Origin: a virus
DNA length: 64,000 nucleotides
Virus record (IMG/VR): IMGVR_UViG_3300032323_001070
Span: 1 to 64,000 of that record
Strand: one strand, 5' to 3'
Positions 2,409-63,331 of this stretch are shown in pieces; the stretch's first letter is position 1; each line of letters begins with the position of its first letter. Both the position numbers and the translations under genes were made by a program. The notes below the pieces were generated by a model, which was not told where the DNA came from, searched no databases, and saw only the letters and a list, made by a program, of their open reading frames with translations.

Positions 2409-3611
2409 ATGAAAATCAATGAAATATTAATCGAAAGCCAACTACAAGAAGGTCCTTTGATGAATAAGATAGGATCAGCTGTGGGCAAGGGTGTAGGCAC
2501 ACTGGCTAAAGGTGTAGGAGCAGTCGCAGGTGGAGTTGCAGGATTAGGTCGTGCAATCAAGAAAGGATATCAAGCAGGTAAAGCCACAGTTGGTGGCGCA
2601 GGTGACGATACAGCAGCAGCACCTGCAAGCGGTGGTGGCCAAGGTGCAGCCCCAGCAGGTGGTGGCGGTGCAGCAGCATCAGCAGGTGGTGGCGATCAAG
2701 GCGGTGCAGCAGGAGCACAAGGAGCACCCGGCGCACCTGGCGCAGCAGGAGCGGCTGGTAAAGATGGAGCACCTGGCGCACAAGGAGCACCTGGCGCAGC
2801 AGGTAAAGATGGAGCAGCTGGAAAAGCTGGAGCACCCGGAGCAGCTGGCGCGGCAGGTAAAGCTGGAGCAGCAGGAAAATCAGGTGCAGCAGGAGATGCA
2901 GGGGCAGCAGGCAAAGATGGAGCCGCAGGTGCAGCTGGAGATGCCGGCGCAGCAGGAACGGCTGGTAAAGATGGAGCCGCAGGTGCAGCTGGAGACGCCG
3001 GCGCAACAGGAGCAGCCCCAGCAGCTAAAGCTAATCCGGCTGCAAGCGGACAGAGAATTGAACCTACATTAGACGAACCAGCAGCAGCAAATCCAAAAGC
3101 AGACTCTGCATATGCACAGGCACAAAAAGCAATTGCTGGTCTTGCACCCGAACAGAAAAAAGAAATCGTAACTATGCTTCAGTCTGATCCTAAAGTTAAG
3201 GCAGCTATGGCTAAACCCGCAGCCAAGAAACCTGCTGCTAAGAAACCAGGAGCAGCACCAGCAGGCGGCGCAATGGGTGCAATGGTTCAACAACTAGGCG
3301 GAGATAAACCAGCAAACACAATGGCAAATGCTCCAGTGAGTAAGACTAATACTGCTAAACCAGGCAACCCTAACGCAGCGCCAGCAGCAGAACCAGCAGC
3401 AGCGCCAGCGGCAGCACCCGCAGCAGCGCCAGCGGCAGGCGAACAACCTGCACCAGCACCTAAAAAGAGAGCAGCACCTAAAAAGAAAGCAGCACCAAGT
3501 CAAGCAGAAATTGATGCCGATCGCGAACGTCTAATGGGACCAACTAGCGACAGCATTATTAGAAAAGGAAATCTTGTTGCAGAAAGTTTTAGTTTTTTTA
3601 GGAAAAAATAA
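2409..3611 (+). CDS. Collagen-like, Ala/Pro/Lys-rich protein with capsid-targeting-like N-terminus
   Basis: 400 aa; SD AAGGA; N-terminus MKINEILIE-S; 35 contiguous Gly-X-Y triplets. Confidence 0.75.
   Translation: MKINEILIESQLQEGPLMNKIGSAVGKGVGTLAKGVGAVAGGVAGLGRAIKKGYQAGKATVGGAGDDTAAAPASGGGQGAAPAGGGGAAASAGGGDQGGAAGAQGAPGAPGAAGAAGKDGAPGAQGAPGAAGKDGAAGKAGAPGAAGAAGKAGAAGKSGAAGDAGAAGKDGAAGAAGDAGAAGTAGKDGAAGAAGDAGATGAAPAAKANPAASGQRIEPTLDEPAAANPKADSAYAQAQKAIAGLAPEQKKEIVTMLQSDPKVKAAMAKPAAKKPAAKKPGAAPAGGAMGAMVQQLGGDKPANTMANAPVSKTNTAKPGNPNAAPAAEPAAAPAAAPAAAPAAGEQPAPAPKKRAAPKKKAAPSQAEIDADRERLMGPTSDSIIRKGNLVAESFSFFRKK
2703..3017 (+). repeat. 9-nt-period coding repeat encoding (Gly-X-Y)35
   Basis: GAA GAQ GAP GAP GAA GAA GKD ... 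GDA GAT GAA, uninterrupted. Confidence 0.9.
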
Positions 3612-5096: not shown

Positions 5097-8000
5097 ATGG
5101 CAACTCCTGTTTCAATTGATATTCCCGGTATTGGTTTAATCGAAGCCAAAAACGCTGCCACGGAAGAAACCTTACGAGAAATTCTAAAGGTCATGCAGGG
5201 TGTTCAAAAGAATACTGCGGGCGGTAGAAGAGCAGGTGGTTCTGCCGGTCGTGCCGGTGGTCCCGGAGCTGATCCAGGCGGAACGACGAATAAAGCCGCC
5301 GATACTGCTGCAAAAGGCCTAGGAGCATTTGCAAAAGGCCTAGGCGGCGTGAGCATGAAGTTTTTAGAAATAGGAGCCGCTTCTGCAAATCTAATTAAGA
5401 CCCTAGGCGGAGTCGGTGACAGTTTAGCAGGTGCAGCACAAGTATTTCAAGCAATACCGAAAATAGGCGGCCCTCTAGCTGCGGTATTCGGGGCAGTTGC
5501 TCATGCTGCTGAAACCTCTGCTAAAGCATATCAAAGCGCAGCAGCAGCCGGCGCATCTTTTGGCGGTAGCATGAATAGTTTCATTAAAACTGCCAGCCAA
5601 GCTGGCATGACTATGGAACAATTTGGTGCACTAGTCAAAAGCAACGGTTCAGGAATGTTAGGTTTTGGCGGAACCGTTGAAGAAGGTGCTAAACGATTTG
5701 GAGCAGTTTCGAAAGCATTGAGATCGTCTAGTAGTAGTCTATATGCTCTAGGATATTCAACTCAAGAAATAAATCAAGGTTTGGCTAGTTATGGTGATCT
5801 ATTGAGGAAACAAGGTCTCCAGGGAACTAAAACTAATGCAGAACTAGCAGCTGGCGCAAAAAATTACATGAAAGAATTAGATGCGTTGGCAAAAATCAGC
5901 GGAGAAGATCGAGCTACCAAAGAAGCACAGATGAAAGCATTAGCTACCGATGTTCAGGTGCAGATGTCAATGGCAGGAAAAAGTGCAGAAACTAGAGAAA
6001 GTTTTATGAAACTTGTAGGAGGTTTTGGTCCTACTCTAGGAAATTTTGTTAAAGATTTTGTAGCGAACGGCACAGTGACTTCTGAAGCGAATGCAAAAAT
6101 AGCAGCGGCTTTGGGTGGTCCAACTATGGACGAACTTCAAAAACTAAGAGCAAAATTAAATGCTAATCAACAATTAACTGCTGAGGAACAAGATAGATTA
6201 AGAGCTATTATTAAAAAATCAGCAGACGAAGGAGCAAAAAAATTAGGTACATCAATTGCTGCCAGTGGCGGAGCACTTGATGATATGGGTAAGGCTTTTA
6301 TTGAAGGTTCTCAGATACAGATAGGGGCAGTGAAAAAAAGCGCAGAGGAACAAGCGAAAGCAGCTAAAGGTCAAGACGGATTAAATCAAAAAGTTGAAGA
6401 ATCAAAAGCTAGATTGGCCGAAATGTCGAATGCTTTTAACCAGATATTATTAAACAGCGGTCTACTAGACACCATGATGAAAGCATTTGGATGGTTCGCT
6501 GATTTTGTTATGACTGTGGTTGTTCCGATATTTCAGGTATTTGGTTCAATAATCACCGCAGCCGTTGATATTCTAGACGTTGTGTTTATTCCGGCATTGG
6601 CAGGGGTAGCGGCTGGCTTATTAACTTACGGAGCAGCACTAGCGGCCAGTTCTGCAGCAAAAGCATATAATACCTTAACTACAATTTCAGAATCAGGTGC
6701 CAGAACCGGATTACTAACAGGATTAGCGGCACAAATTAAAGCTACTTGGGGAGCAGCAGCGGCAGCATTAGGGATAAGTGCTCCTATGCTCGCACTGGTA
6801 GTTGGAGTTACCGCAGTAGTAGCATTGTTTGTTGGATTGTATAGAAGCGGTTGGACATTTAGTTCAGCACTTGAAGCTATCGGTGATAATTTAAAAAGAT
6901 TTGGTTTGAATATCATGGAGCTTATAGATGATATTAAATCAAAATTTTCTTTTATGGGCGATGCTGAAAGAGATCAAAGAAAATTAGAAAGAGACAAAGT
7001 ACGAGCTGAATTAGATGCTAGAGAAGCTGCTAGAGATACTAAGCGAGAAGACGTTAAAAGAGATCGTGGCATAGACGATGATAGGAAAAAAAGAGATAAA
7101 TCATACTTTGATACTAGGGATGAACGTCAAAATGCAGCCGATGCAAAAGCAGAAGCTGCTGCTACTGCCAATGCACCAGGTGGCAAAGATTACAATGCAA
7201 ATGCTATAGACACCCTGAAACAATTTAAAGGTGGATTATCTCAGCCTGGCGCACAGACACAGACTCCGGGTGGCAGCACGGTCCCTGGTGCAGCACCTCC
7301 TGCTGTCAAGCAAGATGTTAAACAGAATATGGAGTTGATTAAAGCAGCTCTTGTTAAACAAGGTATCACAGATCCAAAAATGATTGCCGCAACCATGGGC
7401 AACGTTATGAAGGAAACAGGTGGTAAGAATATTTCTGAAAATCTAAATTACGGCACAACTAAAAATGATAGGATCCGAGATATTTTTGGTTCAAGAGCCG
7501 CAGGAAAGACAGATGCAGAATTAGATGCAATTAAAAAAGATCCGAAACAAATGGGCGAAATGATGTACGGATCAGGTACCAAGATGGGTCAACAGATGGG
7601 TAATACAGAGCCCGGTGACGGTTGGAAATATCGCGGTCGCGGATTTATACAACTTACCGGCAAGTCAAATTATGCCGCAGCATCTAAAGCAATTTTTGGT
7701 GACGATAGATTAGTTAAAAATCCAGATTTATTAGATAATCCACAGGTAGCAGCTGAAGTCAGTGCTTGGTATATGAAGAAAGGTCAGGCAGGTATGGCTA
7801 AGAAACTAGGCCTTGACACTGCGAACCTAACACAAGATCAAGCCAATCTGTTAGCAACAAGTCAAATTGCTGGTGGAGACATCCGTAAGAAAGGTAAAAT
7901 TGGTCAAGAGATTTCTGCCAAAGTAGACAAGTATTCTGCTCAAATGGCCGGACTCGCAGGTGCTCCGGTGACTGCGATGCCAGCAAGTTCTACAGTAAAC

Positions 8001-8249
8001 ACTACTCTAGCATCAAATACAGAAGTAAACAATGCCGGCAATGCAAAACAAGGCAGCAGAGCTCAGCAACAAGCAGGTGGAACTTCGCGTCCTATGGCCC
8101 CTGCTCAAGAATCCGCTGAAACATTACTAGCTAGCTTAAATAGTAAGATGGATCAATTAATTACTATAAACCGAAATCTCAGCGACGTCAATGAGAAACA
8201 GTTAAGAGTGCAGAAATCTCTTAGCTCAGACGGATATGCCGCTGCCTAA
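5097..8249 (+). CDS. Tape measure protein with C-terminal GH19 (chitinase/lysozyme-like) domain
   Basis: 1050 aa, Ala/Gly-rich helical with hydrophobic central segments; motif GDGWKYRGRGFIQLTGKSNY is the GH19 signature. Confidence 0.8.
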   Translation: MATPVSIDIPGIGLIEAKNAATEETLREILKVMQGVQKNTAGGRRAGGSAGRAGGPGADPGGTTNKAADTAAKGLGAFAKGLGGVSMKFLEIGAASANLIKTLGGVGDSLAGAAQVFQAIPKIGGPLAAVFGAVAHAAETSAKAYQSAAAAGASFGGSMNSFIKTASQAGMTMEQFGALVKSNGSGMLGFGGTVEEGAKRFGAVSKALRSSSSSLYALGYSTQEINQGLASYGDLLRKQGLQGTKTNAELAAGAKNYMKELDALAKISGEDRATKEAQMKALATDVQVQMSMAGKSAETRESFMKLVGGFGPTLGNFVKDFVANGTVTSEANAKIAAALGGPTMDELQKLRAKLNANQQLTAEEQDRLRAIIKKSADEGAKKLGTSIAASGGALDDMGKAFIEGSQIQIGAVKKSAEEQAKAAKGQDGLNQKVEESKARLAEMSNAFNQILLNSGLLDTMMKAFGWFADFVMTVVVPIFQVFGSIITAAVDILDVVFIPALAGVAAGLLTYGAALAASSAAKAYNTLTTISESGARTGLLTGLAAQIKATWGAAAAALGISAPMLALVVGVTAVVALFVGLYRSGWTFSSALEAIGDNLKRFGLNIMELIDDIKSKFSFMGDAERDQRKLERDKVRAELDAREAARDTKREDVKRDRGIDDDRKKRDKSYFDTRDERQNAADAKAEAAATANAPGGKDYNANAIDTLKQFKGGLSQPGAQTQTPGGSTVPGAAPPAVKQDVKQNMELIKAALVKQGITDPKMIAATMGNVMKETGGKNISENLNYGTTKNDRIRDIFGSRAAGKTDAELDAIKKDPKQMGEMMYGSGTKMGQQMGNTEPGDGWKYRGRGFIQLTGKSNYAAASKAIFGDDRLVKNPDLLDNPQVAAEVSAWYMKKGQAGMAKKLGLDTANLTQDQANLLATSQIAGGDIRKKGKIGQEISAKVDKYSAQMAGLAGAPVTAMPASSTVNTTLASNTEVNNAGNAKQGSRAQQQAGGTSRPMAPAQESAETLLASLNSKMDQLITINRNLSDVNEKQLRVQKSLSSDGYAAA

Positions 8250-9954: not shown

Positions 9955-9968
9955 ACGCTAAATACACT

Positions 9969-10214
9969 ATGCTTCTAAGAGAATTCATTTATTTTAAAGA
10001 TTCCACTAACGATTTTGCTGTAGATCGAAGATACAGCAACGATCGCGATTCCTCTGTGGTTGAAAAAGACGATACTCGTAAAATTAGATTGACGTTAAAG
10101 CAGATCAATATGCTAAGAACTCAAAGCGAAGCTCACGAGTTTGAAGAAGAATCAGAACTAGAATTCGTAAGACAAATGTATGGTCAACCACCCGCAGAAG
10201 CAGCAGCTGAATAA
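9969..10214 (+). CDS. Small head-module hypothetical protein
   Basis: 81 aa; TAAATA 9959-9964 lies 4 nt before the ATG. Confidence 0.7.
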   Translation: MLLREFIYFKDSTNDFAVDRRYSNDRDSSVVEKDDTRKIRLTLKQINMLRTQSEAHEFEEESELEFVRQMYGQPPAEAAAE

Positions 10215-10833
10215 CGTAGCTTTTGTACTAGGAAACGGAACCAGTAGATTATCAGTAGACGTAAACACACTGATAGAACGAGGTAAAGTTTTCGGTTGTA
10301 ACGCTATCTACAGAGAATTCCAACCCCACTATCTTGTAGCTGTTGACGTAAAAATGGTCAACGAAATCATTGCCAGCGGGTATCATAAGACCAATGAAGT
10401 CTGGACAAATCCTAACAAAGGTATACTTGATAAGGATTATGTTAAATTTTTTAATCCGCATAAAGGCTGGTCTAGTGGCCCTACAGCACTGTGGTTTGCA
10501 GCAAATCAAGGACACAGAAACATTTTTATTCTAGGATTTGATTACCAAGGAACGCAGGGCAGATTTAATAATGTGTATGCAGATACATACAATTATAAAA
10601 AGAGCTCGGATGCTGCTACATTCCACGGAAACTGGTTAAGTCAAACTGATAGAACTATAAGAGAATATAGAAATACTAATTTTTACAGAGTAATTGAACC
10701 CGGATCCTATATACCGGATAAACTAGCACCGCCGCATCATACGAACCTTCGACATATTAATTTCGAAGAATTTGAAAATTTTTTTCCCGGAACTATATAT
10801 TCCGATCAAAATCATCAAAAAAGTACCATTTAA
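10180..10833 (+). CDS. DUF115/Maf-like (sialyltransferase-related fold) putative glycosyltransferase
   Basis: Motifs AFVLGNGTS, GCNAIY, PHYLVAVD, SSGPTA, IFILGFD; start uncertain (overlaps upstream ORF). Confidence 0.6.
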   Translation: MVNHPQKQQLNNVAFVLGNGTSRLSVDVNTLIERGKVFGCNAIYREFQPHYLVAVDVKMVNEIIASGYHKTNEVWTNPNKGILDKDYVKFFNPHKGWSSGPTALWFAANQGHRNIFILGFDYQGTQGRFNNVYADTYNYKKSSDAATFHGNWLSQTDRTIREYRNTNFYRVIEPGSYIPDKLAPPHHTNLRHINFEEFENFFPGTIYSDQNHQKSTI

Positions 10834-14710: not shown

Positions 14711-14728
14711 GTTTGACTTAAATATCAG

Positions 14729-37225: not shown

Positions 37226-37258
37226 AGTCATATATTTACCGCTACGATAAATACTTGT

Positions 37259-43235: not shown

Positions 43236-43252
43236 GTGGCATAAATATTATT

Positions 43253-45173: not shown

Positions 45174-45656
45174 ATGACCAAAAAATTAGAAGAACTTTTT
45201 AATCTTGAGGAATCTAATCCAAAGCCAGTGGAAACTGTCGAAGAGGAAAAGCCATCTCACCAAGAAGTAAAATCACTAGATGACAGCTATAAAGCAGTCG
45301 CTGAAATTACCAGAGGTCTTCCGCAGATCAAAGAGCTAGATGATCTAGACGAAAAAGAGCTAGATTCTCTAGCCAGTAAAGCAGAAGCTGCCTATGACGA
45401 TCTAATGGATCTAGGCATGAACGTAGAAGTACGTTATTCGGGACGTATTTTTGAAGTGGCTGCAAGCATGATGGGCAATGCTATCAATGCTAAAAACGCT
45501 AAAATCGAGAAGAAACTTAAAGCTATCGATCTACAATTGAAAAAATATAAAATCGATAAAGATAACAATGAAGATCCAAATGATGTGATTAACGGCCAGG
45601 GTTACATTATCACTGACCGTAACGAGCTCCTTAAGAAATTGGGTCAAAAGAGCTAA
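45174..45656 (+). CDS. Probable small terminase subunit (gp16-like)
   Basis: Helical; R.FEVA..M motif; two genes upstream of the large terminase. Confidence 0.55.
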   Translation: MTKKLEELFNLEESNPKPVETVEEEKPSHQEVKSLDDSYKAVAEITRGLPQIKELDDLDEKELDSLASKAEAAYDDLMDLGMNVEVRYSGRIFEVAASMMGNAINAKNAKIEKKLKAIDLQLKKYKIDKDNNEDPNDVINGQGYIITDRNELLKKLGQKS

Positions 45657-45664
45657 ATACTACT

Positions 45665-46970: not shown

Positions 46971-46984
46971 CAGTAAATACTCGT

Positions 46985-53474: not shown

Positions 53475-53704
53475 AAGAAGATTTAATTGCCGACTTGTGG
53501 AATGTAGTAGTAGAACATATTCCTGAAAAACAAAAGAAAGATGTAGCACATGATTTTGTTAACACACTCATGGACTACGGAATCAAAGAGTCGACCGTTG
53601 AAAGCCTATTAGGTGTCGATCCTTACCTCGATGAAGCTATTGAATACGTCATTGACGGTGAGGAAATCCAAGAAGATGAAGATTACTACGAAGACGAAGA
53701 CTAA
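53471..53704 (+). CDS. Small acidic hypothetical protein
   Basis: 77 aa, coupled to uvsX and uvsY. Confidence 0.7.
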   Translation: MKEDLIADLWNVVVEHIPEKQKKDVAHDFVNTLMDYGIKESTVESLLGVDPYLDEAIEYVIDGEEIQEDEDYYEDED

Positions 53705-54159
53705 TGAATTGGTATGATAAAGTTTCGAGGGATATTAGTAACATCCCCGATGCCGTGGCCTATTATGAAGCCGAACTGTTAGCGGCAAAACAAGATGTCC
53801 GCGTAGCTGGTAACATCGAGAAAGCCTCAGCGCAGATGCCCGGCATCGTTGAAACTAGATTTAATCAACTTCAGGAAATTGAGGGTATCTTAGAATATCT
53901 CAATATCGAACTTCGTCGACTACGTAGTCAGCATTTTCGCAAGTATCTTGAAAACTATCAACGCAGCTTGTCCTCTAGAGACTGTGAAAAGTTTGTAGAG
54001 GGCGAAGCTGATGTTGTAGACTTTGAAAAGATCATCAACGATTTTGCACTGTTAAGAAACAAGTGGTTAGGCATTATCAAAGCCTTAGATATCAAACAGT
54101 GGCAGTTATCAAATATCGTTAAATTAAGAACTGCTGGCTTAGAAGACGCCACTCTTTAA
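53704..54159 (+). CDS. uvsY: Recombination mediator UvsY-like
   Basis: Helical; KYLE.Y...LSSRD.EK, K.LD.K.WQL.NIVKLRTAG; adjacent to uvsX. Confidence 0.8.
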   Translation: MNWYDKVSRDISNIPDAVAYYEAELLAAKQDVRVAGNIEKASAQMPGIVETRFNQLQEIEGILEYLNIELRRLRSQHFRKYLENYQRSLSSRDCEKFVEGEADVVDFEKIINDFALLRNKWLGIIKALDIKQWQLSNIVKLRTAGLEDATL

Positions 54160-54179: not shown

Positions 54180-54187
54180 TATAAATA
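54180..54187 (+). promoter_or_regulatory. Perfect T4 late promoter TATAAATA heading the glycan cluster
   Basis: TATAAATA-agact-ATG(54193). Confidence 0.8.
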
Positions 54188-54192
54188 AGACT

Positions 54193-54960
54193 ATGAAAAT
54201 AGTCTTAGTTACAGGTGGGTTTGATCCCATACATTCCGGGCACATTGCCTATTTCAAAGCAGCACGTTCACTAGGTGATATGCTCCTAGTTGGAATCAAT
54301 TCTGACGAATGGCTTGTTCGTAAAAAGGGTCGTGCGTTTATGCCCTGGAACGAACGCCTTTGTATAATCAATAATCTATCAATGGTTGACGAAGTTTATA
54401 CCTTCGATGACGAAGACGGTTCTGCTAAAGAATTTATTAAACAGGTTCGAGCGCATTATCCAGATGCAGAATTGATATTTGCCAACGGCGGCGATCGCAC
54501 TGCAAAAAATATTCCAGAAATGGACGTTGAAGATTCTAATTTAAAATTTGAATTTGGAGTCGGAGGCGAAGATAAAAAGAATTCTAGCTCATGGATTCTA
54601 ACTGAATGGAAATCGCCCAAGACTGAAAGAACCTGGGGCTACTATCGTGTATTACACGAAATACCAGGATGTAAAGTCAAAGAACTAACTGTAGATCCTG
54701 GTAAGAGCCTAAGCCTGCAACGACATCGAGATAGAACTGAAATATGGTTAGTATCTGAAGGTCAGTGTATGGTAGAACATCACGGGCATGCCATAGAGAC
54801 TGACGAATATCTAATACACACCCCTTTAAAGGAACATACTGAGTTTCATATTCCTAGAACTAAATGGCATAGACTTTTTAATCCGTATGAAACTCCATGC
54901 CGGATCGTGGAAATACAATACGGCGATAGATGCGATGAAGAGGATATAGAAAGAAGATGA
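54193..54960 (+). CDS. Cytidylyltransferase-like (HIGH) domain fused to a mannose-6-P-isomerase-type cupin
   Basis: VTGGFDPIHSGH, GINSDEWL.RKKG, FANGGDR; C-terminal ERTWGYY..., V.PGKSLSLQRH..R.E.W, IVEIQYG..C.EEDIER. Confidence 0.85.
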   Translation: MKIVLVTGGFDPIHSGHIAYFKAARSLGDMLLVGINSDEWLVRKKGRAFMPWNERLCIINNLSMVDEVYTFDDEDGSAKEFIKQVRAHYPDAELIFANGGDRTAKNIPEMDVEDSNLKFEFGVGGEDKKNSSSWILTEWKSPKTERTWGYYRVLHEIPGCKVKELTVDPGKSLSLQRHRDRTEIWLVSEGQCMVEHHGHAIETDEYLIHTPLKEHTEFHIPRTKWHRLFNPYETPCRIVEIQYGDRCDEEDIERR

Positions 54961-55634
54961 TTCCAATTTTTATAGGTTATGATCCTAGAGAAGCAGTAGC
55001 ATTTCACGTTTGTACAAATAGTATAATCCGTCAATCAAGTCAGCCGGTGAGTATTAATCCGCTGGCATTAAACATTCTTAAAGATTATAAAGAAACACAC
55101 ACTGACGGTAGTAATCATTTCATCTACAGCAGATTCCTTGTACCACATTTAATGAATTATCAAGGGTGGGCTATATTCATGGATGGTGATATGTTACTGC
55201 GAGATGATATAGCTAAATTATGGGAGCTTCGAGATGAATCAAAAGCAGTTCAAGTCGTCAAACATGATTATAAAACCAGACTTACTGAAAAGTATCTTGG
55301 AGCGAAGAACGAGAACTATCCTCGTAAAAATTGGAGTTCTGTTATTCTTTGGAATTGTCATCATCCTGCAAATGCTACAGTAACTCCTGACTTTGTACAG
55401 AATGCCACTGGGGCACAGGTACACAGATTTACGTGGTTATCTGATGACCTCATAGGAGAGTTACCCATCGAATGGAATTGGTTGCCGGATGAGTTTGGAG
55501 CCAACCCCGATGCTAAATTATTACATTATACATTGGGTACTCCTAGTTTCCACGAATTCGCCACAACTCCTATGGGAGATGAATGGCACAGAGAACGGAT
55601 CTATACTGAGTACTGTCTACAGCATAATCTATGA
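54957..55634 (+). CDS. GT-A glycosyltransferase (GT8-like)
   Basis: IFIGYDPRE, F.YSRFLVP, FMDGDM (DxD), YPRKNWSSV, LP.EWNWL, LHYTLGTP. Confidence 0.8.
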   Translation: MIPIFIGYDPREAVAFHVCTNSIIRQSSQPVSINPLALNILKDYKETHTDGSNHFIYSRFLVPHLMNYQGWAIFMDGDMLLRDDIAKLWELRDESKAVQVVKHDYKTRLTEKYLGAKNENYPRKNWSSVILWNCHHPANATVTPDFVQNATGAQVHRFTWLSDDLIGELPIEWNWLPDEFGANPDAKLLHYTLGTPSFHEFATTPMGDEWHRERIYTEYCLQHNL

Positions 55635-56401
55635 TTTCTTACATTAAGAAAGATCTCTCCCAACAGTATAATATCGGAGATGATCTTTGCACTCCGGACA
55701 AATATTTTAAAATAGAATCTGAAAATAATCTTTTTATAATCGGCGGCGGTGCATACGTAGACCACGGATTAAAAAGATTAAAAAAATTAAATATTGATCC
55801 TAAAAAAGTAGTAGCATGGGGTCTTGGAACATCTGATAAAAAATTAACAGATAGTAAATTAAAATCTTTGCCTTATTTAGATTGGGGTGTAAGAGATCTT
55901 GATACAGTTTCAGCAGACAAATTCCTTCCTTGTGTTAGTTGTTTTAATCGACAGATAACATCAGCACCTAAAGACGATAATACCTTGATATTTTTAAATG
56001 CCAATGACAAAGTTTCTGGCGATATCGATATTGATCAACCTTATCTAACAAATGCAGTATCAATGGATGAATTTATACGACACTGGAGTATTTCAGATAA
56101 AGTTATTACAAATTCATATCATGGAATTTATTGGTCATTATTAACTGGAAGATCTGTAATGCCGTTCGGATACTCTTCTAAGTTTTTCAGCGTGTTAAAG
56201 ATGTTTGAAAAAGAATTACCACAAGAAAACTTTTATAAAATAAAAAGCAAAACTGAGCTAACTGAATTATTATCAACAGCTATTAAAGATCCTAAATTTA
56301 TATCTGTGAAAGATTCTAATCTCTTTTTAGATAGATTTAGAAGTTTAAATTATCAGTTTGCTGCGGGTCTATCTCGATTTGGTATTAGGTGCAGTCTATG
56401 A
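55631..56401 (+). CDS. Polysaccharide pyruvyltransferase-like protein
   Basis: NIGDD, IIGGG, AWGLG, GVRD, ITNSYHGIYWSLL.GR motifs. Confidence 0.65.
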   Translation: MISYIKKDLSQQYNIGDDLCTPDKYFKIESENNLFIIGGGAYVDHGLKRLKKLNIDPKKVVAWGLGTSDKKLTDSKLKSLPYLDWGVRDLDTVSADKFLPCVSCFNRQITSAPKDDNTLIFLNANDKVSGDIDIDQPYLTNAVSMDEFIRHWSISDKVITNSYHGIYWSLLTGRSVMPFGYSSKFFSVLKMFEKELPQENFYKIKSKTELTELLSTAIKDPKFISVKDSNLFLDRFRSLNYQFAAGLSRFGIRCSL

Positions 56402-57207
56402 GTGAATGGATTTTTCTAAGCAAAGACGGCGAAGACGAATATATCAATATGTTCGCTAAAGGATGTAAATCTCCTATAGTCAGCACAGAACATTTTGTAT
56501 ACGAATCTAGTAATGCTCCTATAGTGCTTAGGGGAATAATGAAGCACAAGATCATGAAACAATGCTGGAATGACGGCAGAACTTTTTATTATGTAGACAG
56601 TGGATACTTTGGTAATCAACCAAATCCTCTCAATCCGCAAGGTTGGAAAGTTTGGCACCGTATCGTTAAAAACGATCTTCAGCACGACAAAATCGTTGAG
56701 CGACCCAATGATAGATGGCTGCGACTTAAACAGAATTTAGAACCTTGGAAAAAGTCTGGAAGAAAAATATTGATAGCGGCGCCCGACGAAAAACCCTGTA
56801 AGTTTTACGGAATAGATTTAGAAACGTGGATCAATGAAACTATGGAGACTATTAAAAAGTATACTGATAGGCCCATAGAAGTAAGATCTCGAGCACCTAA
56901 TAGGATTGACAGGATACAGAATTCTACATTAAAACAGGCGTTAGATAACGATGTGTTTGCATTGGTCACTTACAACTCAAACGCTGCCACGGAAGCAGTG
57001 ATGTACGGTTATCCTGCATTTACCCTAGCTCCAACAAATGCTGCTGGACCAGTTAGTTCTCAAGATCTTTCCAAAATCAACGAGCCTTACTATCCTAACA
57101 GAGATAAATTATATGCCTGGGCCTGTCATTTAGCCTATGGACAATTTCACAACGACGAATTAAAAAACGGAACTGCAAAAAAAATATTGGAAGAACAGCA
57201 TGGATGA
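56398..57207 (+). CDS. Capsule-synthesis (KpsC/KpsS-like) GT-B transferase, paralog 1
   Basis: YYVDSGYFG, VTYNSNAATEA...GYP, LAYGQF...EL..G. Confidence 0.65.
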   Translation: MSEWIFLSKDGEDEYINMFAKGCKSPIVSTEHFVYESSNAPIVLRGIMKHKIMKQCWNDGRTFYYVDSGYFGNQPNPLNPQGWKVWHRIVKNDLQHDKIVERPNDRWLRLKQNLEPWKKSGRKILIAAPDEKPCKFYGIDLETWINETMETIKKYTDRPIEVRSRAPNRIDRIQNSTLKQALDNDVFALVTYNSNAATEAVMYGYPAFTLAPTNAAGPVSSQDLSKINEPYYPNRDKLYAWACHLAYGQFHNDELKNGTAKKILEEQHG

Positions 57208-57970
57208 AATACTTTATAACTACATCAAGAAAGGTTGCAATAACGCAATAGAAAGCGATCCTAATTTAGAATCTACAAAGCCTTTGTTGATTCGGGGTAT
57301 TGCTTCTAAAAAACATATCTATAAATGTCAGAATACCGGAAGAGATTTTTATTATCTAGACACAGGATATTTTGGCAACTATCCATCAAAACATAATCCA
57401 ATAGGAAAAAAATTATTTCATAGACTTGTAAAAAATGAATTGCAGTTATCAAAGATTTTAGACGTACCCGGTGATCGTTGGGAAGCAGTGGCTAAAACTG
57501 ATCCTAGATTACAATTTAAAGGTTGGAAGAAAAACGGATCCCATATATTGGTATTATTACCGACGCCTAAAGCATGTAAGTTCTATGGCTTCGAATATGA
57601 GCAATGGGTCAGTACTACTATCGAAACATTAAAAGCGAATACTGATAGAAAAATCGTATTAAGAGAAAAACCCGGTAGAAAAGACAGGAAAGTAATATCC
57701 AGTGTCTATGATCAGATGGACGGCGCCTTTGCCACAATATCTCTTAACAGTATCGCAGCTATCGAATCAATATTATACGGAGTTCCTCATTTTGCCGCAG
57801 TTTCGTGTTGCGGAACTCCTTTGGTATCAACTGACTTTTCTAAAATAGAAACTCCTTATTTTCCCGACGAGCGCCAGATACAATTAAAATGTAATAGTCT
57901 AGCTTATAATCAATTCACTACCGAAGAAATGAAAGACGGTACTGCTTGGAAAATACTCCAACAATATTAA
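57200..57970 (+). CDS. Capsule-synthesis-like GT-B transferase, paralog 2
   Basis: YYLDTGYFG, SLNSIAAIES...GVP, LAYNQFT.EE..G.AW. Confidence 0.65.
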   Translation: MDEILYNYIKKGCNNAIESDPNLESTKPLLIRGIASKKHIYKCQNTGRDFYYLDTGYFGNYPSKHNPIGKKLFHRLVKNELQLSKILDVPGDRWEAVAKTDPRLQFKGWKKNGSHILVLLPTPKACKFYGFEYEQWVSTTIETLKANTDRKIVLREKPGRKDRKVISSVYDQMDGAFATISLNSIAAIESILYGVPHFAAVSCCGTPLVSTDFSKIETPYFPDERQIQLKCNSLAYNQFTTEEMKDGTAWKILQQY

Positions 57971-57971
57971 A

Positions 57972-59063
57972 ATGAAATTATTATTAAACAATAAAGAAAT
58001 CGCTGCCTTTTTAGTAACACAACTAGATGTGTATAGTTGCTGTGAAAAAATAGAGTTCGAAGAAATAGACATGACTAATGTTAGGGTATTCATAGAACAT
58101 GAAACTGCTAGAATAACCTATAACATCGACGATATGCGAGAATCTTTTAAAAAGAAAATAGGCAAGGCTGTGAGAAAAGATTTGAATCGATGGGTAAATG
58201 CTGTCAAAAATCAAATAGAAACCGTTAGAAAAGATTATAGATTATTAATTAACAGTCACACTGATTACTTTATAGAAAAGTTAGGTGAGAAGAATATATT
58301 AGAAGCCTACAGAAACAGCGAAGTTCACAATTTCGTTAAGAGTGTAGGTCTGCATATTGATCCTTCTGCAGAATTAATAAGAAGAAACGATTTCACCTCA
58401 GTCTCAGAAGATTGTGTCTTTCGCAATACCATAGGAAACGAACAGTTAATCATATCTAAGATCGATAACAATTATCCTTTCTGGTTTATAGATAGTGGAT
58501 ATACTAATTTTATAGAAAATAATAAAAAATGGCATAGGTTAGTTCGCAACCATATCCATTTTCATAAAGACTTTGAAGCCCCTGTTGATCGTTTAGGCGT
58601 TTTTACAGAATTTCCTAAACAGTGGCGCACTGACGGTGATAAAATTCTAATAATCGAGCCTGGTCCGTTTGCAGCAGGTATAAGTCGCATAGATTTAAAG
58701 ACTTGGAAGTATCATATAGAAGCAGAGCTAAGAAAATTTACAGATAAAAAAATCGTGTTCAGAGAAAAGGCTCCTAAAAAACAAAGAGATCCGTTATATA
58801 AACATCTACTAGATGAAGATTACTATTGTCTGGTTAATATTAATTCAAATGCTGCTACAGAAGCAGTATGGGCCGGTGTTCCTGTGATAACATTAGACAA
58901 GCATGTGACAAATAGTATAGCCAGAAGTAAATTGTCGGATATAAATGATCTGTTAAGACCTAATTTAGCCAATTGGCTTTGTATGCTGAGCTACAGTCAA
59001 TTTACCTACGACGAATTAATCAACGGAACTGCTGTAAAACTCGTTAATCAATACCATGTCTAA
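57972..59063 (+). CDS. Capsule-synthesis-like GT-B transferase, paralog 3 (N-terminal extension)
   Basis: FIDSGY, NINSNAATEA..AGVP, LSYSQFT.DEL.NG.A. Confidence 0.65.
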   Translation: MKLLLNNKEIAAFLVTQLDVYSCCEKIEFEEIDMTNVRVFIEHETARITYNIDDMRESFKKKIGKAVRKDLNRWVNAVKNQIETVRKDYRLLINSHTDYFIEKLGEKNILEAYRNSEVHNFVKSVGLHIDPSAELIRRNDFTSVSEDCVFRNTIGNEQLIISKIDNNYPFWFIDSGYTNFIENNKKWHRLVRNHIHFHKDFEAPVDRLGVFTEFPKQWRTDGDKILIIEPGPFAAGISRIDLKTWKYHIEAELRKFTDKKIVFREKAPKKQRDPLYKHLLDEDYYCLVNINSNAATEAVWAGVPVITLDKHVTNSIARSKLSDINDLLRPNLANWLCMLSYSQFTYDELINGTAVKLVNQYHV

Positions 59064-59982
59064 GTTAACCGCAGTCGCATATTTCAAAGGTATTCCTCCT
59101 AATAACAAAAATATGGAGAAACCTATGATACTGAATAATTTCTTACAGGGAGTAAGGCAGCTAGGCGACATTGCTATCAATAATCAAGAAATGAAGGTTA
59201 TCCCCTGCGATGTTGCTCTGATACAGGGGTTTGTACACGACGACGGAAAACAATTACCTCATCTAGAGTTAAGAAAACAGGCAATAACTCAACAAAGAAA
59301 CAGTGGCAAGAGAAGTTTAATCGTTGACAGTAATTTGTTTTTATATGCTGATCCAGGAAATACAAAAACATACCTTCGATACAGTTTTGACGGAGTATTT
59401 CCTACTACAGGATTTTATTTTGATACAGATGTTGATCCTAATCGATGGAAAAAAATCAGTAAGGACCTAGGATTAACCTTGAAGCCTTATCGATCAGATG
59501 GAGATCACATTTTAATCTGCTTACAAAGACACGGCGGCTGGAGTATGGGTGGTCTTAGTACTTTAGAATGGTTAGATCATACTATCAATAAGATAAGAGA
59601 ACAAACTTTAAAGAGACCAATCATAGTTAGAGCACATCCCGGCGATCGCAGAATAAAATCAATGCTAAGTTTAAATTATAAAAATGTTTTTCTCAGCGAA
59701 AAAGAAAAATTAGTAGATGATCTCAAAGGAGCATGGGCCAGTGTGGTCTATAATAGCAGTCCTAGTGTGGCTAGTCTTATCGAAGGTATACCTACGTTCG
59801 TAACAGACCCAACACCCCAACACAGTCAAAGTTTTGGAGTCGCTAACACTGACCTTTCTCAGATAACTCAACCTCAACTACCTGATAGACAACAGTGGAT
59901 TGAAAAAGTTTCGATGTGTCACTGGAATTTTGATGAGCTTAAATCTGGTGAGGCCTGGCAGTTTTTTAAAAAATATGTTTAA
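59056..59982 (+). CDS. Capsule-synthesis-like GT-B transferase, paralog 4
   Basis: ICLQ, IVRAHPG, YNSSPSVAS.IEGIP, DRQQW...W..DELKSG.AW. Confidence 0.65.
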   Translation: MSKLTAVAYFKGIPPNNKNMEKPMILNNFLQGVRQLGDIAINNQEMKVIPCDVALIQGFVHDDGKQLPHLELRKQAITQQRNSGKRSLIVDSNLFLYADPGNTKTYLRYSFDGVFPTTGFYFDTDVDPNRWKKISKDLGLTLKPYRSDGDHILICLQRHGGWSMGGLSTLEWLDHTINKIREQTLKRPIIVRAHPGDRRIKSMLSLNYKNVFLSEKEKLVDDLKGAWASVVYNSSPSVASLIEGIPTFVTDPTPQHSQSFGVANTDLSQITQPQLPDRQQWIEKVSMCHWNFDELKSGEAWQFFKKYV

Positions 59983-60824
59983 GCAAACTGCTGCCAGTAC
60001 GGTTCTGTTCTAACTACCTTAAGATCTTCTCGTTTACTTCTACCGGCAAATTTTCTGTCACCTTTTAAGTGATCTAACCATGCTCCCCATTCGCTATTAA
60101 TCAATGGATGGCCTTCTCCTACACTGTTTCCGACTCCGGGTCGTAGATCCCCGAGAGTTTCACTCCAACTCAGCTGATTAAGAAATGGCATCTTGACTCT
60201 GACAGCATCAAATACGAAGCTATCGTGCCACTCGTCTAATAAAAATATGCCACCTTCGGCTTTATCGTACATTCTTTGGAATTCCATCAAGAACATCTTG
60301 GTCTGCTCAGTTCTTAAATTCATAGAATAGAGGCCACACTCTGAAAATTTACCTTTCCTGCCGAGGTAGCAGAGATCTTTTTCACCGGGTATCATCCTTT
60401 GAAGGTCTGTCAACGTAATAGGGCTGTGGCAAATGGTGTCAGCGTCCATCCATAACAAAATATCGGCATCACAGTTCTTGGCACAATGAAAAATTGAGTA
60501 AACTTTATGACTAAATCTCACGGCATCCCACTTGAAGCCCTTGCCAGCATCTCTTCTACGGCTGCGTATCGGATCGCTTCTAACATCTCCGTTGGCCTTA
60601 GGAACACCCTTCCACTTATTTTTAAAATTTACCAAATCTTGACTGACTGCGTGGAGGTCTAGTACTACAAGATTGTCGCCTTTTTCTGAAACAGTAACAT
60701 CTTCACCGTAGACATACAGTGTTACTTCTTTAGGCCATGTTTTTAGAAAGGTTTCTATCATCCTTTTTCCATACATCTCATAGCCCTTCTTGTGAAATGT
60801 CGTAACCACTGAATATTTTGTCAT
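59979..60824 (-). CDS. GT-A glycosyltransferase-like protein
   Basis: WDAVRFSHKV, WMDAD (DxD), SECG, EWHDSFVFD, DHLKG; ATGA-coupled start at 60824. Confidence 0.7.
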   Translation of the reverse strand: MTKYSVVTTFHKKGYEMYGKRMIETFLKTWPKEVTLYVYGEDVTVSEKGDNLVVLDLHAVSQDLVNFKNKWKGVPKANGDVRSDPIRSRRRDAGKGFKWDAVRFSHKVYSIFHCAKNCDADILLWMDADTICHSPITLTDLQRMIPGEKDLCYLGRKGKFSECGLYSMNLRTEQTKMFLMEFQRMYDKAEGGIFLLDEWHDSFVFDAVRVKMPFLNQLSWSETLGDLRPGVGNSVGEGHPLINSEWGAWLDHLKGDRKFAGRSKREDLKVVRTEPYWQQFA

Positions 60825-61216
60825 TTTTTCTTCCATATTTGATAACCTTTAGAGATGTCAGTTATAACATACTGACAACTTTTTAAGAAATCTGAAAATT
60901 CTTTATCAATATAATTTTCAGTATAAATCATAAGTGTTGGTTTTTGTTTAATTAACAATCTTTCCACTAATCTTAGATTTTTAATGCCGTCGACGTCAGT
61001 AAATATTAGATTAAACTTTGGCAAGTTTATTAATTCATCAAAAAACTCCTGATAGACGATATTTTTTCTTTTTACAATAACGTTATGTTCCTTGTAGACA
61101 AAAACTGTGCCAAAAATATTGGAAAAATCTTCGAGAAGATCCGCTGCTGAGTTTAAAACTAAGCAGGAGTCTACACCGTCGGCAGTTTTTGTAATTCTTT
61201 TATAGAACTTGTTCAT
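60821..61216 (-). CDS. Hypothetical protein (possibly a degenerate methyltransferase fold)
   Basis: 131 aa, AT-rich; minus-strand TAAATA at 61241-61236. Confidence 0.55.
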   Translation of the reverse strand: MNKFYKRITKTADGVDSCLVLNSAADLLEDFSNIFGTVFVYKEHNVIVKRKNIVYQEFFDELINLPKFNLIFTDVDGIKNLRLVERLLIKQKPTLMIYTENYIDKEFSDFLKSCQYVITDISKGYQIWKKK

Positions 61217-61252
61217 TTTAGATTAAATACTATGATATTTATTGAGTAAAAT

Positions 61253-62113
61253 ATGAGATACAAACTTTATAGGTCCAACGGCGCACTAAACAGTGGCCCA
61301 GTCTTTGACGCATTTGAACAGGGTATCCGTAGCATCAAAGAATACCCAGTGTCCGATAGCGAGGATGTGGCAGTTATTTGGTCAGTGCTATGGAACGGCC
61401 GGATGCAGGCCAATCAACATATCTTTTATTCTTTCCAGAATAAGAAAAAACCTGTGGTAATCATAGAGGTTGGTAATCTCATCAGAAACAAGACCTGGAG
61501 GATATCACTTGACAATATCAATAGTCTTGGATATTTTGCCAATGACAGCGATCTGGATAAAAGCAGACCAAAACAACTAGGTATCAAGCTCAAAGATACT
61601 AACCCCAACAGACGTCCGGAGATATTGATAGCTGCTCAACATCAGAATAGTTTACAGTGGCAAGGTATGCCTCCTATGGTAGACTGGGTTAAGCAAACCA
61701 TCGATAAAATAAGGCAGTACACTGACAGAGGAATAGTGGTTCGACCACATCCTCGTTCACCATTTACTCTAAACATACCCGGAGTTAGTGTAGAAACTCC
61801 TCAAAAAATCAGAGACAGCTACGATGATTTTGACATAGATTATAACTACCATTGTGTTGTTAATCACAACAGCGGTCCTGCTGTTCAAGCAGCCATTCAA
61901 GGCGTTCCTGTGATCTGTGACTCGTCTAGCCTTGCTGGAGAATTAAGTGGAACCTTTGAAAATATTGAAAACATTCAATTGCCTGATAGAAAAGATTGGT
62001 TGATTAAACTAGCCCATACTGAATGGACTGTAGAAGAAATAGCCCAGGGTATTCCACTCAAGAGATTGAAACCTAAACTTAACCAACTTGTAGCAAATTC
62101 CTTGCTTTCTTAA
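61253..62113 (+). CDS. Capsule-synthesis-like GT-B transferase, paralog 5
   Basis: IAAQ, VVRPHPR, NHNSGPAVQAAIQGVP, DR..W...LAHTEWT.EEI..G. Confidence 0.65.
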   Translation: MRYKLYRSNGALNSGPVFDAFEQGIRSIKEYPVSDSEDVAVIWSVLWNGRMQANQHIFYSFQNKKKPVVIIEVGNLIRNKTWRISLDNINSLGYFANDSDLDKSRPKQLGIKLKDTNPNRRPEILIAAQHQNSLQWQGMPPMVDWVKQTIDKIRQYTDRGIVVRPHPRSPFTLNIPGVSVETPQKIRDSYDDFDIDYNYHCVVNHNSGPAVQAAIQGVPVICDSSSLAGELSGTFENIENIQLPDRKDWLIKLAHTEWTVEEIAQGIPLKRLKPKLNQLVANSLLS

Positions 62114-62139
62114 GTATGAATGTGTTAAAATTAACACAT
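62102..62139 (+). promoter_or_regulatory. Sigma70-like promoter overlapped by a perfect inverted repeat
   Basis: TTGCTT-N18-TAAAAT with extended TG; atgtgttaa-aa-ttaacacat at 62120-62139. Confidence 0.55.
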
Positions 62140-63331
62140 GCCGAACCATCTTTATTTCGAAGACGCCTTTGTGGAATTTTATTCACATGTAATGTATGGA
62201 AAAATTCCACTGCAATATCAGGATCAGCATCCCTGTGATAATTTTTACAATTTAATCACTGACAAAAAACAGTTGACCGAAAATCAAGGTCGGTTCATCG
62301 TCAAGATTTTAGAAAAATATAAGAAATTTTCTTCGAACCTCGGTCTTCGGTATCAACACCTACTAGACAACCCCAAGTGGAAAAATACGTTCCGGATCAT
62401 TGATACTTCTAAAAAGATTTTCATCGAAAACGATGATCAAAATAACCTCTGGATCAACGCAAAATTTCCGTATGCTTTGAAAGATATCTTTCAAAAAGAA
62501 ATTGTTGATCCTAGTGGATTAACTGGTAGTCATTGGGATCCTGAATCTAAAGTAAGAAGGATTCCTTTCAGAAATTGCAACATTATACACATTTATGAAT
62601 TTGCTATAAAACATGGTTTTGAGGTGGATGATTCGGTATTAACTGCCATGAGCGAGGTGGAAGAGATTTGGAACAATGCACATGATGTTGTTCCATATTC
62701 AAAAATAATCGATGACAAAGTCTATCTCATAAACGCCAACGAAGATGTAGAAGCATGGTGGTCTGAGAATTCAACAGGCACTATTCAACAAGACATGTTT
62801 TTGGCAAAAACTGCTGGATTTCCTCTACAAATTGAAGAACAGGATCACAGCGACATTCTGGAACGCATTTCAACTTCAGAAGAAACTCATTTCTGGATCA
62901 AAGACAACGATCAGTTTTTTAATCTGTACAATACCCTAGGTGGAAAGTGTGCTGTGGTATTAGATAGAAACTGTGATGTCAAAGAATGGATCGGCGATTT
63001 TGTAAATTCTGCTGAAAAAAACCAGATCAATCGAAACCTTATAAAAGTCTGTTTTAGAGAATCTCAAGAAGATAAATCAGGTTTCAATGATTGGATCAAA
63101 CAAAACAATTTGGGCGGTACGTTAGAAAATGCTGATATCTTTATTTTTCAACATAAGCCTCCCAAGTGGTTGTTCAAAGATAATATTTCTGTTAAAATAG
63201 TAGTTACGAATGGTTTATATCCTTCTACGAGTAATTTAACACAGGCATTAACAGAGTCACATCCCTGTGTGATACACCTTGGAAATATAAAGCCATCGGC
63301 ACAAAGGAAAATAACAATTGTCGACTTGTAA
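62138..63331 (+). CDS. Hypothetical protein upstream of the helicase
   Basis: 397-aa ORF. Confidence 0.75.
   Translation: MPNHLYFEDAFVEFYSHVMYGKIPLQYQDQHPCDNFYNLITDKKQLTENQGRFIVKILEKYKKFSSNLGLRYQHLLDNPKWKNTFRIIDTSKKIFIENDDQNNLWINAKFPYALKDIFQKEIVDPSGLTGSHWDPESKVRRIPFRNCNIIHIYEFAIKHGFEVDDSVLTAMSEVEEIWNNAHDVVPYSKIIDDKVYLINANEDVEAWWSENSTGTIQQDMFLAKTAGFPLQIEEQDHSDILERISTSEETHFWIKDNDQFFNLYNTLGGKCAVVLDRNCDVKEWIGDFVNSAEKNQINRNLIKVCFRESQEDKSGFNDWIKQNNLGGTLENADIFIFQHKPPKWLFKDNISVKIVVTNGLYPSTSNLTQALTESHPCVIHLGNIKPSAQRKITIVDL

Follow-up and report, generated by a model that had tools for sequence, protein, structure and literature searches.

What does a phage build with a run of glycan genes set among its recombination genes, and onto what is the product attached? 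The question is raised by a locus in the viral record IMGVR_UViG_3300032323_001070 of the IMG/VR database. The stretch analysed here (the window) comprises positions 1 to 64,000 of that record, and the locus (the island) comprises ten open reading frames (ORFs), g1 to g10, at 54193-62113 between uvsY and uvsW. Comparison with related loci showed the island to be a fixed, strain-variable hotspot at this site across an uncultured jumbo-phage clade, and its gene content supports a multi-enzyme glycan assembly line of soluble proteins that lacks an exporter. Five of its genes are paralogs which, on a structural model, form a distinct, large and unnamed phage family placed beside the retaining 3-deoxy-D-manno-octulosonate (Kdo) transferases, without the nucleophile of these enzymes. 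With regard to the acceptor, virion structural proteins are tentatively preferred and are weighed below against the host envelope, the phage DNA and other cytoplasmic targets.

A hypervariable glycan island

The comparison set consisted of 80 IMG/VR loci encoding orthologues of g4, and the identities given for these loci are medians relative to the window. In every locus with enough flank the island was located between uvsY and uvsW. The flanking genes were 86% (uvsX), 91% (uvsY) and 83% (uvsW) identical, whereas the values inside the island were 61% for g1, 43% for g2, 68% for g4, 50% for g7, 61% for g8, 30% for g9 and 58% for g10. These seven genes recurred among the loci and g3, g5 and g6 were occasional. 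Extra cargo in the relatives included a GDP-mannose 4,6-dehydratase (Gmd, E 5e-116), a UDP-sugar dehydrogenase, several epimerases/dehydratases of the short-chain dehydrogenase/reductase (SDR) type, a PseB/CapD-like dehydratase, GT17, GT25 and GT2-like enzymes, and methyltransferases. The island genes evolve much faster than their flanks, and cargo is swapped between relatives. One relative (L075, 4700-6217) encodes in its island an NTP-transferase/APH-kinase fusion with the domain plan of AfhE, the arabinose-activating enzyme of phages with arabinosylated DNA.

The window makes up the opening 64 kb of an 80.8-kb viral contig, for which CheckV estimated a completeness of about 22%; the phage is therefore a jumbo phage. 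The gene content of the contig is of the T4 type (portal, prohead protease, Gp23-type capsid protein, gp32, UvsX, UvsY, UvsW), and its UvsX is 61-70% identical to the proteins of Vibrio phage 2.275.O, Xanthomonas phage XbC2, Pectobacterium phage CBB, Cronobacter phage GAP32 and Agrobacterium phage Atu_ph07, the phage being a Rak2/CBB-like jumbo phage of freshwater. UvsY is encoded at 53704-54159 (47% identity to a Vibrio phage protein annotated with PF11056) and the gene for the UvsW helicase starts at 63318. The cultured relatives 2.275.O and CBB show the gene order gp32-UvsX-UvsY-single gene-UvsW, with a lone gene unrelated to the island at the uvsY/uvsW site. The G+C content drops from about 0.41 to 0.32-0.39 inside the island, and a megablast search of the island against 50,697 phage records returned zero matches.

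A preliminary description of the window had placed ten contiguous genes between uvsY and uvsW. All ten were recovered, and the interval was found to hold an eleventh gene as well (62138-63331, + strand, between g10 and uvsW; considered at the end of this section). The ten ORFs are tightly packed, with seven on the + strand (g1 to g7, separated by overlaps or gaps of 1-13 nt), then two on the - strand (g8, g9) and one on the + strand (g10); overlaps between neighbours measure 4-16 nt for most of the ten.

The first gene, g1 (54193-54960, +), was described as a nucleotidyltransferase-cupin fusion, and both Pfam domains indeed scored above their cut-offs (CTP_transf_like, 48.9 bits against 21; MannoseP_isomer cupin, 71.4 bits against 23.6). 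The protein is predicted to join a HIGH-type nucleotidyltransferase resembling RfaE domain II and TagD (HSGH, a motif of the H-x-G-H type, at residues 14-17) to a type II phosphomannose-isomerase cupin. Its N-terminal half matched the NCBIfam models rfaE_dom_II (5e-20) and g3p_cytidyltrns (2e-11), both under the equivalog cut-offs, and its best PDB matches were ethanolamine-phosphate and glycerol-3-phosphate cytidylyltransferases. Presumably g1 activates a sugar or polyol phosphate. The gene was present in 79 of the 80 loci, and the same type of fusion recurs across many all-viral Atlas clusters.

Two GT-A enzymes with DxD motifs had been proposed. For g2 (54957-55634, +; DGD) the Pfam GT8 model scored 33.2 bits against a cut-off of 24.3, the match covering profile positions 59-134 only, and PHROGs gave phrog_28018 (1e-36), so that this GT8-like assignment stands; for g8 (59979-60836, -; found in 40 loci) the DAD motif is present and the GT2 family is only suggested, by a Pfam score of 19.6 bits under the cut-off of 23.3. 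Since metagenomic proteins exist in which a GT8 domain is fused to a domain of the paralog type, both activities are tied to one pathway. The polysaccharide pyruvyltransferase-like assignment of g3 (55631-56401, +) was borne out marginally by a profile match (PS_pyruv_trans, PF04230; 27.9 bits against 25.3, E 2.7e-6); this gene is variable cargo, found in just one of the 80 loci. The protein of 131 aa encoded by g9 (60821-61216, -), listed from the start as the one gene of unknown function, had zero matches in Pfam, PHROGs and NCBIfam, and its position is kept among the relatives while its sequence is very divergent (the 30% given above).

The ten proteins appear to be soluble, in line with the preliminary description, in which signal peptides, flippase and exporter were not evident. 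The maximum hydrophobicity of any 19-residue window among them was 1.40, below transmembrane level, and the scan found no segment compatible with a membrane helix or signal peptide. Pfam gave no match in these proteins to flippase, polymerase or priming phosphoglycosyltransferase families. Domains of the KpsMT exporter or of KpsED type were found neither in the ten proteins nor among the annotated flanking genes of the 80.8-kb contig, in which the island differs from a group 2 (kps) capsule locus with its exporter (KpsMT) and envelope (KpsED) genes.

The eleventh gene encodes a 397-aa protein of unknown function with no match in the family, PHROG or PDB searches. It probably belongs to the variable block, with a median identity of 43% compared with 83% for uvsW, a pace of change equal to that of the island. 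It occupies the site of an exonuclease-like or hypothetical gene in the cultured relatives, but is non-homologous to the gene of Vibrio phage 2.275.O at the equivalent site. Correspondence to the DnaQ-like gene of CBB was considered and set aside in view of the missing similarity at the same site in 2.275.O, CBB_280 itself being outside the comparison.

The five paralogs and the retaining Kdo transferases

The paralogs are single-module proteins of 256-363 aa with pairwise identities of 24-43%, encoded on the + strand by g4 (56389-57207), g5 (57200-57970), g6 (57972-59063), g7 (59056-59982) and g10 (61253-62113). Of these, g4 and g7 (59 loci) are core genes, and g5 (16 loci; 43% identity to g4) and g6 (12 loci; with an N-terminal extension of about 100 residues) are variable. 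A profile of the five matched 5021 clusters at E<=1e-3 and 3664 at E<=1e-10 among 50%-identity clusters covering 1.84 billion representatives. The Atlas clusters nearest g10 are all or nearly all viral, as judged from the few members with a record, and there are thousands of g4 orthologues with identities of about 70%. A scan of 185,579 bacterial and archaeal species genomes detected no close relative of this gene, a search that is uninformative on distant bacterial homologues.

In the preliminary description these proteins were taken as KpsC/KpsS-like capsule transferases. The motifs quoted there are shared by all five and the predicted fold is that of KpsC and WbbB, but membership in the family itself did not hold. 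The paralogs matched nothing in Pfam at E 0.1, and Capsule_synth (PF05159) had no match on the whole contig even at E 10; this domain is carried by just 18% of the members of one Atlas neighbour cluster. DUF6716 ("putative glycosyltransferase") was matched weakly by 9 of 70 family members (best E 7e-5). Profiles built from 5 and from 70 sequences gave spurious matches to designed TIM barrels in PDB and a weak match to WbbB (E 0.17). The fold was resolved by structure comparison only.

The AlphaFold (AF2) model of g10, built on the 70-sequence alignment, had a mean predicted local distance difference test score (pLDDT) of 95.5. Using Foldseek, its first eleven matches were WbbB and KpsC, with KrkA following further down among the Kdo transferases (E about 1e-7 to 1e-5). 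An exhaustive comparison with VIA, independent of Foldseek, ranked KpsC 2,4 (Z 13.8), KpsC 2,7 (Z 12.2), WbbB (Z 12.0) and KrkA (Z 10.2) above generic GT-B enzymes (Z <=9.1). Over the full length of g10, the best-scoring structures were thus KpsC/KpsS (GT107), WbbB (GT99) and KrkA (GT140), with a clear gap to the other GT-B enzymes. Because the two methods agree the assignment is well supported, and g10 is predicted to share the modified GT-B architecture of KpsC, WbbB and KrkA.

Retaining beta-Kdo transferases are defined by an absolutely conserved Asp in a QxxxD motif, which forms a covalent Kdo adduct and lies about 33 residues ahead of the HP motif, together with (K/R)xHP and a general-base Glu (PMC9587256, PMC12887879). 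The equivalent of QxxxD, placed by sequence and secondary-structure topology rather than by superposition, lies at residues 129-133 of g10, past the first strand of the C-terminal domain. Across the 70-member alignment this site contains no conserved Asp; its first position is occupied by Pro (44 members) or Gln (18), the Gln thus being retained in only about a quarter of the family, and its last mainly by Ser (28), Thr (9), Pro (6) or Ala (6). The site reads QHQNS in g10, QRHGG in g7 and PDEKP in g4. At the (K/R)xHP equivalent, 68 of 70 members have the Arg and 52 have the Pro, while the His position is Lys in 45, His in 19 and Arg in 6. The His is kept in g7 (RAHP) and g10 (RPHP), g5 has RxKP, and g4 and g6 have one extra residue. 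Two co-varying subtypes can be distinguished, Q...H (g7, g10) and P...K (g4, g5, g6).

Other positions are conserved among the 70 members, namely (g10 numbering) an acidic residue at 72 (100%), Arg83, Arg105, Arg164, Ser207, Gly217, Pro219 and Glu262. In g7 and g10 the R-x-H-P motif is followed about 41 residues on by a Ser and then by Glu/Gln at the spacing expected from the Kdo transferases (PMC12887879). Because the R-x-(H/K)-P, N-S and E/Q elements are spaced like the residues of KrkA that bind cytidine monophosphate (CMP), we infer that the paralogs may use a donor linked to CMP or cytidine diphosphate (CDP) with a different catalytic arrangement. Neither a CMP-sugar (CMP-ulosonate) synthetase nor NeuB is encoded in five related records, and a CMP-Kdo donor would therefore have to be supplied by the host. 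The short paralogs, unmatched by Capsule_synth and without the QxxxD Asp, are therefore regarded as a distinct phage family rather than as KpsC/KpsS proper.

Late-type boxes and apparently leaderless transcripts

The octamer TATAAATA (54180-54187, +; core TAAATA at 54182-54187) lies 5 nt ahead of the ATG of g1 and had been taken as a perfect late promoter. The box itself was confirmed, and TAAATA-N5-ATG is kept ahead of g1 in about 45 related loci despite diverged surroundings; as an exact T4 octamer, however, it is no more frequent in the window than chance would predict (3 sites against 4.8 expected). The signal is carried by the 6-mer TAAATA, with 17 of its 50 sites on the contig falling within the 3.2% that is intergenic (P about 1e-13). 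Boxes of this kind stand ahead of, among others, the small ORF that follows the portal gene, the head genes beginning at 10898, the gene for the giant fibre and, at 46985, a 528-aa gene whose position matches that of the terminase in relatives. The boxes reported for the divergent part of the island were also found, back to back in the g9/g10 spacer (61224-61229, +, for g10; 61236-61241, -, for g9-g8), and are kept in about 25 related loci. The related phages CBB and GAP32 encode a gp55-like sigma factor, and the ATAAATA motif ahead of their structural genes has been predicted to be the late promoter (PMC5259590). Because the motif equals this predicted promoter, the boxes are well supported, by sequence and analogy, as putative late-type promoters. 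The public sequencing runs listed as containing the island included no RNA run.

In seven genes including g1, TAAATA stands 4-5 nt ahead of the start codon and a Shine-Dalgarno sequence is missing (box-to-start stretches 9959-9968, 14719-14728, 37248-37258, 43242-43252, 45654-45664, 46974-46984 and 54182-54192). With a T4-like spacing between promoter and start site, this distance would place the start of the transcript on the ATG. The arrangement implies that the g1 mRNA would be leaderless or nearly so, and suggests that many late mRNAs of this phage may be leaderless.

In most relatives (for example L023, L011, L039 and L054) the g1 box is situated inside a perfect inverted repeat, GCAGA-TAAATA-TCTGC, with the ATG directly after it; the window itself lacks this repeat at g1. 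The repeat could be an operator or a hairpin at the 5' end of the RNA.

The acceptor of the glycan

Two further sets of genes bear on the acceptor. The first is a single gene at 10180-10833 (+) in the head operon, which runs portal (Portal_T4, E 4e-108), small ORF, 10180 gene, a 278-aa unknown, prohead protease, a 364-aa unknown and major capsid protein. Its product had been called Maf-like, and the predicted fold agrees with this label. Its Pfam and PHROG matches to alpha-2,3-sialyltransferase were sub-threshold (CST-I, 18.9 bits against a cut-off of 25; phrog_4603, 2e-4), but the top 14 Foldseek matches of its AF2 model (pLDDT 78.7) were GT42 sialyltransferases and the Maf flagellin glycosyltransferase (5mu5; E 2e-5 to 6e-4, template modelling score about 0.45). 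A profile search of this gene against PDB gave spurious ankyrin-repeat matches, which were discarded. Co-occurrence with the island, which had been put forward for checking, was found in part: copies 67-68% identical are present in the three relatives whose records include the head region, whereas a more distant, 95%-complete relative (G001) has the island and no detectable homologue, so that the priming link proposed earlier is not strict. The 10180 gene is a possible protein-directed member of the glycan system.

The second set lies past uvsW on the same contig, and the glycan genes are consequently not confined to the uvsY/uvsW block. It comprises two GT25 genes, a methyltransferase, a GT2/GT92-like gene, an SDR epimerase and a GT4 gene, with a NodU/Nol-type carbamoyltransferase between primase and helicase (contig 66971-73492 and 75810-77255, corresponding to L085 3971-10492 and 12810-14255). 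With the head-operon gene, the transferase-like proteins of the phage total about a dozen.

Comparable clusters exist in cultured phages. Caulobacter phage CcrColossus carries at gp126-gp131 one family member (gp128) together with genes for sialyltransferase-like, GT-A and GT9 proteins, immediately behind the tail genes and ahead of the lysis cassette; genes 183-191 of Pelagibacter phage Mosig include two family members with methyltransferases, a sulfotransferase and two glycosyltransferases; and the family is also present in Bertelyvirus. The likeness to the island is the paralog-type gene beside sialyltransferase-like, GT-A, GT9, methyltransferase or sulfotransferase genes, all of them annotated as hypothetical. 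The CcrColossus and Mosig clusters differ in having one or two family members instead of five, in showing no g1-type fusion in the stretch seen, and in their sites, after tail genes in CcrColossus and near nrd and RuvC in Mosig. Mycobacteriophages (Freeman et al. 2023, cited in PMC12619734) resemble the present phage in encoding soluble glycosyltransferases proposed to decorate capsid or tail proteins in the cytoplasm. They differ in having one to four GT-A/GT-B enzymes next to the structural genes, Gram-positive-type hosts and virion glycans that were shown as such, whereas here about a dozen transferases of other families are located mostly in the replication module. The "moraphage" paper (PMC12619734) was set aside except for its references, since it apparently concerns another lineage with Bacteroidota hosts.

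At a probability of about 0.4, both for the region as a whole and for its acceptor, we regard the region as a strain-variable, late-transcribed and wholly cytoplasmic glycan-assembly island acting on virion structural proteins. A gp55-type late sigma factor would fire the box 5 nt ahead of g1 and yield a leaderless, translationally coupled g1-g7 message, and the divergent boxes would drive g9-g8 and g10. The g1 protein would isomerise and nucleotide-activate a sugar or polyol phosphate, and the GT8-like, the GT2-like and the five KpsC-fold enzymes would each add one residue, the latter having kept a CMP-type nucleotide pocket (R-x-H/K-P, N-S, E) and lost the nucleophile of the Kdo transferases. 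A pyruvate ketal would be added by g3, and the products would be extended or decorated by the transferases, methyltransferase, epimerase and carbamoyltransferase encoded past uvsW. The first sugar may be placed by the GT42/Maf-fold enzyme of the head operon, and the outcome would be particles bearing a variable, acidic oligosaccharide coat. A virion acceptor is favoured because late-type promoters are common to the structural genes, because a fold resembling protein glycosyltransferases is encoded between portal and prohead protease, because the CcrColossus cluster directly follows tail genes, because a lipid-carrier priming enzyme, flippase, polymerase and exporter are lacking among the ten proteins, and because no ThyA-family route to a hydroxylated base was found in the 95%-complete relative. 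Precedent for virion glycosylation is given by mycobacteriophages (Freeman 2023, as cited in PMC12619734).

Several points weigh against this preference. The island sits within the replication/recombination module, away from the structural genes, and the head-operon transferase has no detectable counterpart in G001. The late timing would follow from motif analogy. The catalytic Asp of the nearest structural relatives is missing from the paralogs, whose transferase activity is predicted from fold and conservation, and their putative donor is left without an encoded CMP-ulosonate synthetase or NeuB in the five related records. Moreover, KpsC/WbbB, GT8, GT25 and RfaE-like proteins are classic enzymes of lipid-linked lipopolysaccharide (LPS), lipooligosaccharide (LOS) and capsule synthesis, and host exporters could be borrowed.

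The last point leads to remodelling of the host envelope, which we consider rather unlikely. In its favour, KpsC and WbbB use lipid-linked acceptors (PMC9587256, PMC10148158), and GT8, GT25 and RfaE-domain-II-like proteins (besides GT9 in CcrColossus) are LPS-core/LOS families. Soluble enzymes would modify lipid-linked acceptors at the inner membrane face, such as lipid A-core/LOS, undecaprenyl diphosphate-linked O-antigen or the phosphatidylglycerol-Kdo linker, and MsbA or another ABC transporter of the host would export the glycan; the altered cell surface could, for instance, block superinfection or the adsorption of progeny to debris. Core-type assembly requires peripheral membrane enzymes and no phage flippase, host CMP-Kdo would account for the missing CMP-sugar synthetase and NeuB, and the hypervariability is like that of bacterial O-antigen and outer-core loci. 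Yet late-type promoters would leave little time for export to count, one transferase is encoded within the head operon, and the paralogs are without the Kdo-transferase nucleophile; the ten proteins also have zero membrane segments, which still permits peripheral binding. Improbable to a greater degree is that the enzymes serve some other cytoplasmic target, either by making a glycan that stays free or is stored or by glycosylating proteins of phage or host outside the virion (for example in the inactivation of a host factor), or that some paralogs are non-catalytic binders of sugar nucleotides. The loss of the canonical nucleophile would fit this reading, g9 and the 397-aa gene have no family match, and no acceptor can be assigned. 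However, 70 diverse members share strictly conserved acidic and basic residues as well as Gly217, Pro219 and Glu262, and the paralogs share operons with bona fide transferases and nucleotide-sugar enzymes.

DNA hypermodification, with an oligosaccharide on a modified base that protects against host nucleases and varies in an arms race with modification-dependent restriction, is judged improbable as well, if slightly less so than these other cytoplasmic targets. The late timing had been thought to argue against it, but most hypermodified pyrimidines themselves arise late in lytic development, when groups are transferred onto the DNA (PMC13326640), and late timing therefore does not exclude it. 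The DNA glycosylation clusters (T4 alpha/beta-glucosyltransferase; RB69 and DLP3 with arabinosyl-5-hydroxycytosine, 5hoC; RL38J1) resemble the present locus in having multiple transferases, their own nucleotide-sugar synthesis, variability and a site near nucleotide or replication genes (PMC13326640), and in the present phage the genes of the island and of its extension are interspersed with uvsY, uvsW, primase and helicase. DNA glycosylation by several transferases is known, as in the tri-arabinosyl-5hoC of DLP3 and the three transferases of RL38J1 (PMC13326640); the thymidine modification of jumbo phage YerA41 is about 1 kDa and according to its authors of apparent oligosaccharide character (PMC9023294); and one phage enzyme of the NodU type, the type found here, carbamoylates 5-hydroxymethylcytosine (PMC8670742). 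The NTP-transferase/APH fusion of one relative shares the domain plan of AfhE, and fast diversification would suit an arms race. On the other hand, the known clusters always include a ThyA-family enzyme making a hydroxylated pyrimidine, and their transferases are ordinary GT-B enzymes of the GT4 type rather than of the KpsC fold (PMC13326640). Neither the 95%-complete G001 nor any of four fragments contained the corresponding hydroxymethylase/hydroxylase family (PF00303), in a search whose control matched 10 of 14 genomes; Tet_JBP (PF12851) also had no match in G001 or the four fragments, but its control matched no genome and that search is uninformative. About a dozen transferases with pyruvyl, methyl and carbamoyl tailoring go far beyond any characterised DNA glycan, carbamoyltransferases beside GT1 genes were located on unmodified contigs (PMC8670742), and contigs of the lineage are readily obtained from many ordinary shotgun metagenomes, unlike the heavily modified DNA of YerA41, which may argue weakly in the same direction.

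Three further genes of the phage were recorded. A 400-aa protein (2409-3611, +) has a collagen-like run of at least 36 G-X-Y triplets from residue 99 onward, among which GAA, GAP and GKD are frequent; presumably it forms a fibre, which, given the GT25 genes, is conceivable as a glycan acceptor. Glycosylation of the collagen type by GT25 was considered for it and set aside, as its lysines are at the X and not the Y position and no 2-oxoglutarate oxygenase is encoded on the contig. A 1050-aa protein (5097-8249, +; late-type box 51 nt upstream) matched Glyco_hydro_19 (chitinase/lysozyme type) at residues 840-895 with 24.7 bits against a cut-off of 25.5, and is probably a virion-borne wall hydrolase. 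For a 163-aa gene directly after uvsW (contig 64769-65260; L085 1769-2260), the match to a DNA methyltransferase PHROG (2e-14) is restricted to the C-terminal part of that profile, and the gene is poorly conserved (two related loci).

Glycan clusters in phages are a known kind of system, as are the glycosylation of virions and that of DNA. New are a very large phage-specific family of transferase fold beside the retaining Kdo transferases, without their nucleophile and in five copies here, and a rapidly evolving hotspot of glycan genes that keeps a fixed place between uvsY and uvsW across an abundant clade of uncultured jumbo phages, with conserved late-type and apparently leaderless promoters. 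To our knowledge, glycan clusters are widely annotated in aquatic phages and none has a known target outside mycobacteriophages and DNA-glycosylating phages. The present locus, with its conserved insertion site, late-type leaderless promoter and core genes with swappable cargo, is a clean handle on this problem; a dark family of more than 5000 sequence clusters can now be placed beside the retaining Kdo transferases, and its cultured carriers (CcrColossus, Bertelyvirus, Mosig) make the target question experimentally tractable. In its most far-reaching form, which is doubtful, a phage-specific family derived from the sialyl/Kdo-transferase lineage, with its nucleophilic Asp replaced and in five copies, would late in infection cover the particles of jumbo phages abundant in fresh water with a strain-variable, acidic oligosaccharide coat (ulosonic or phosphodiester-linked, pyruvylated and carbamoylated), in effect a virion serotype system at a recombination hotspot. 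Should the product instead modify DNA or host LPS, no system of that kind described so far would be as elaborate; if it coats virions, the particles of lake phages would bear variable glycan serotypes, with a bearing on adsorption, decay, grazing and host range.

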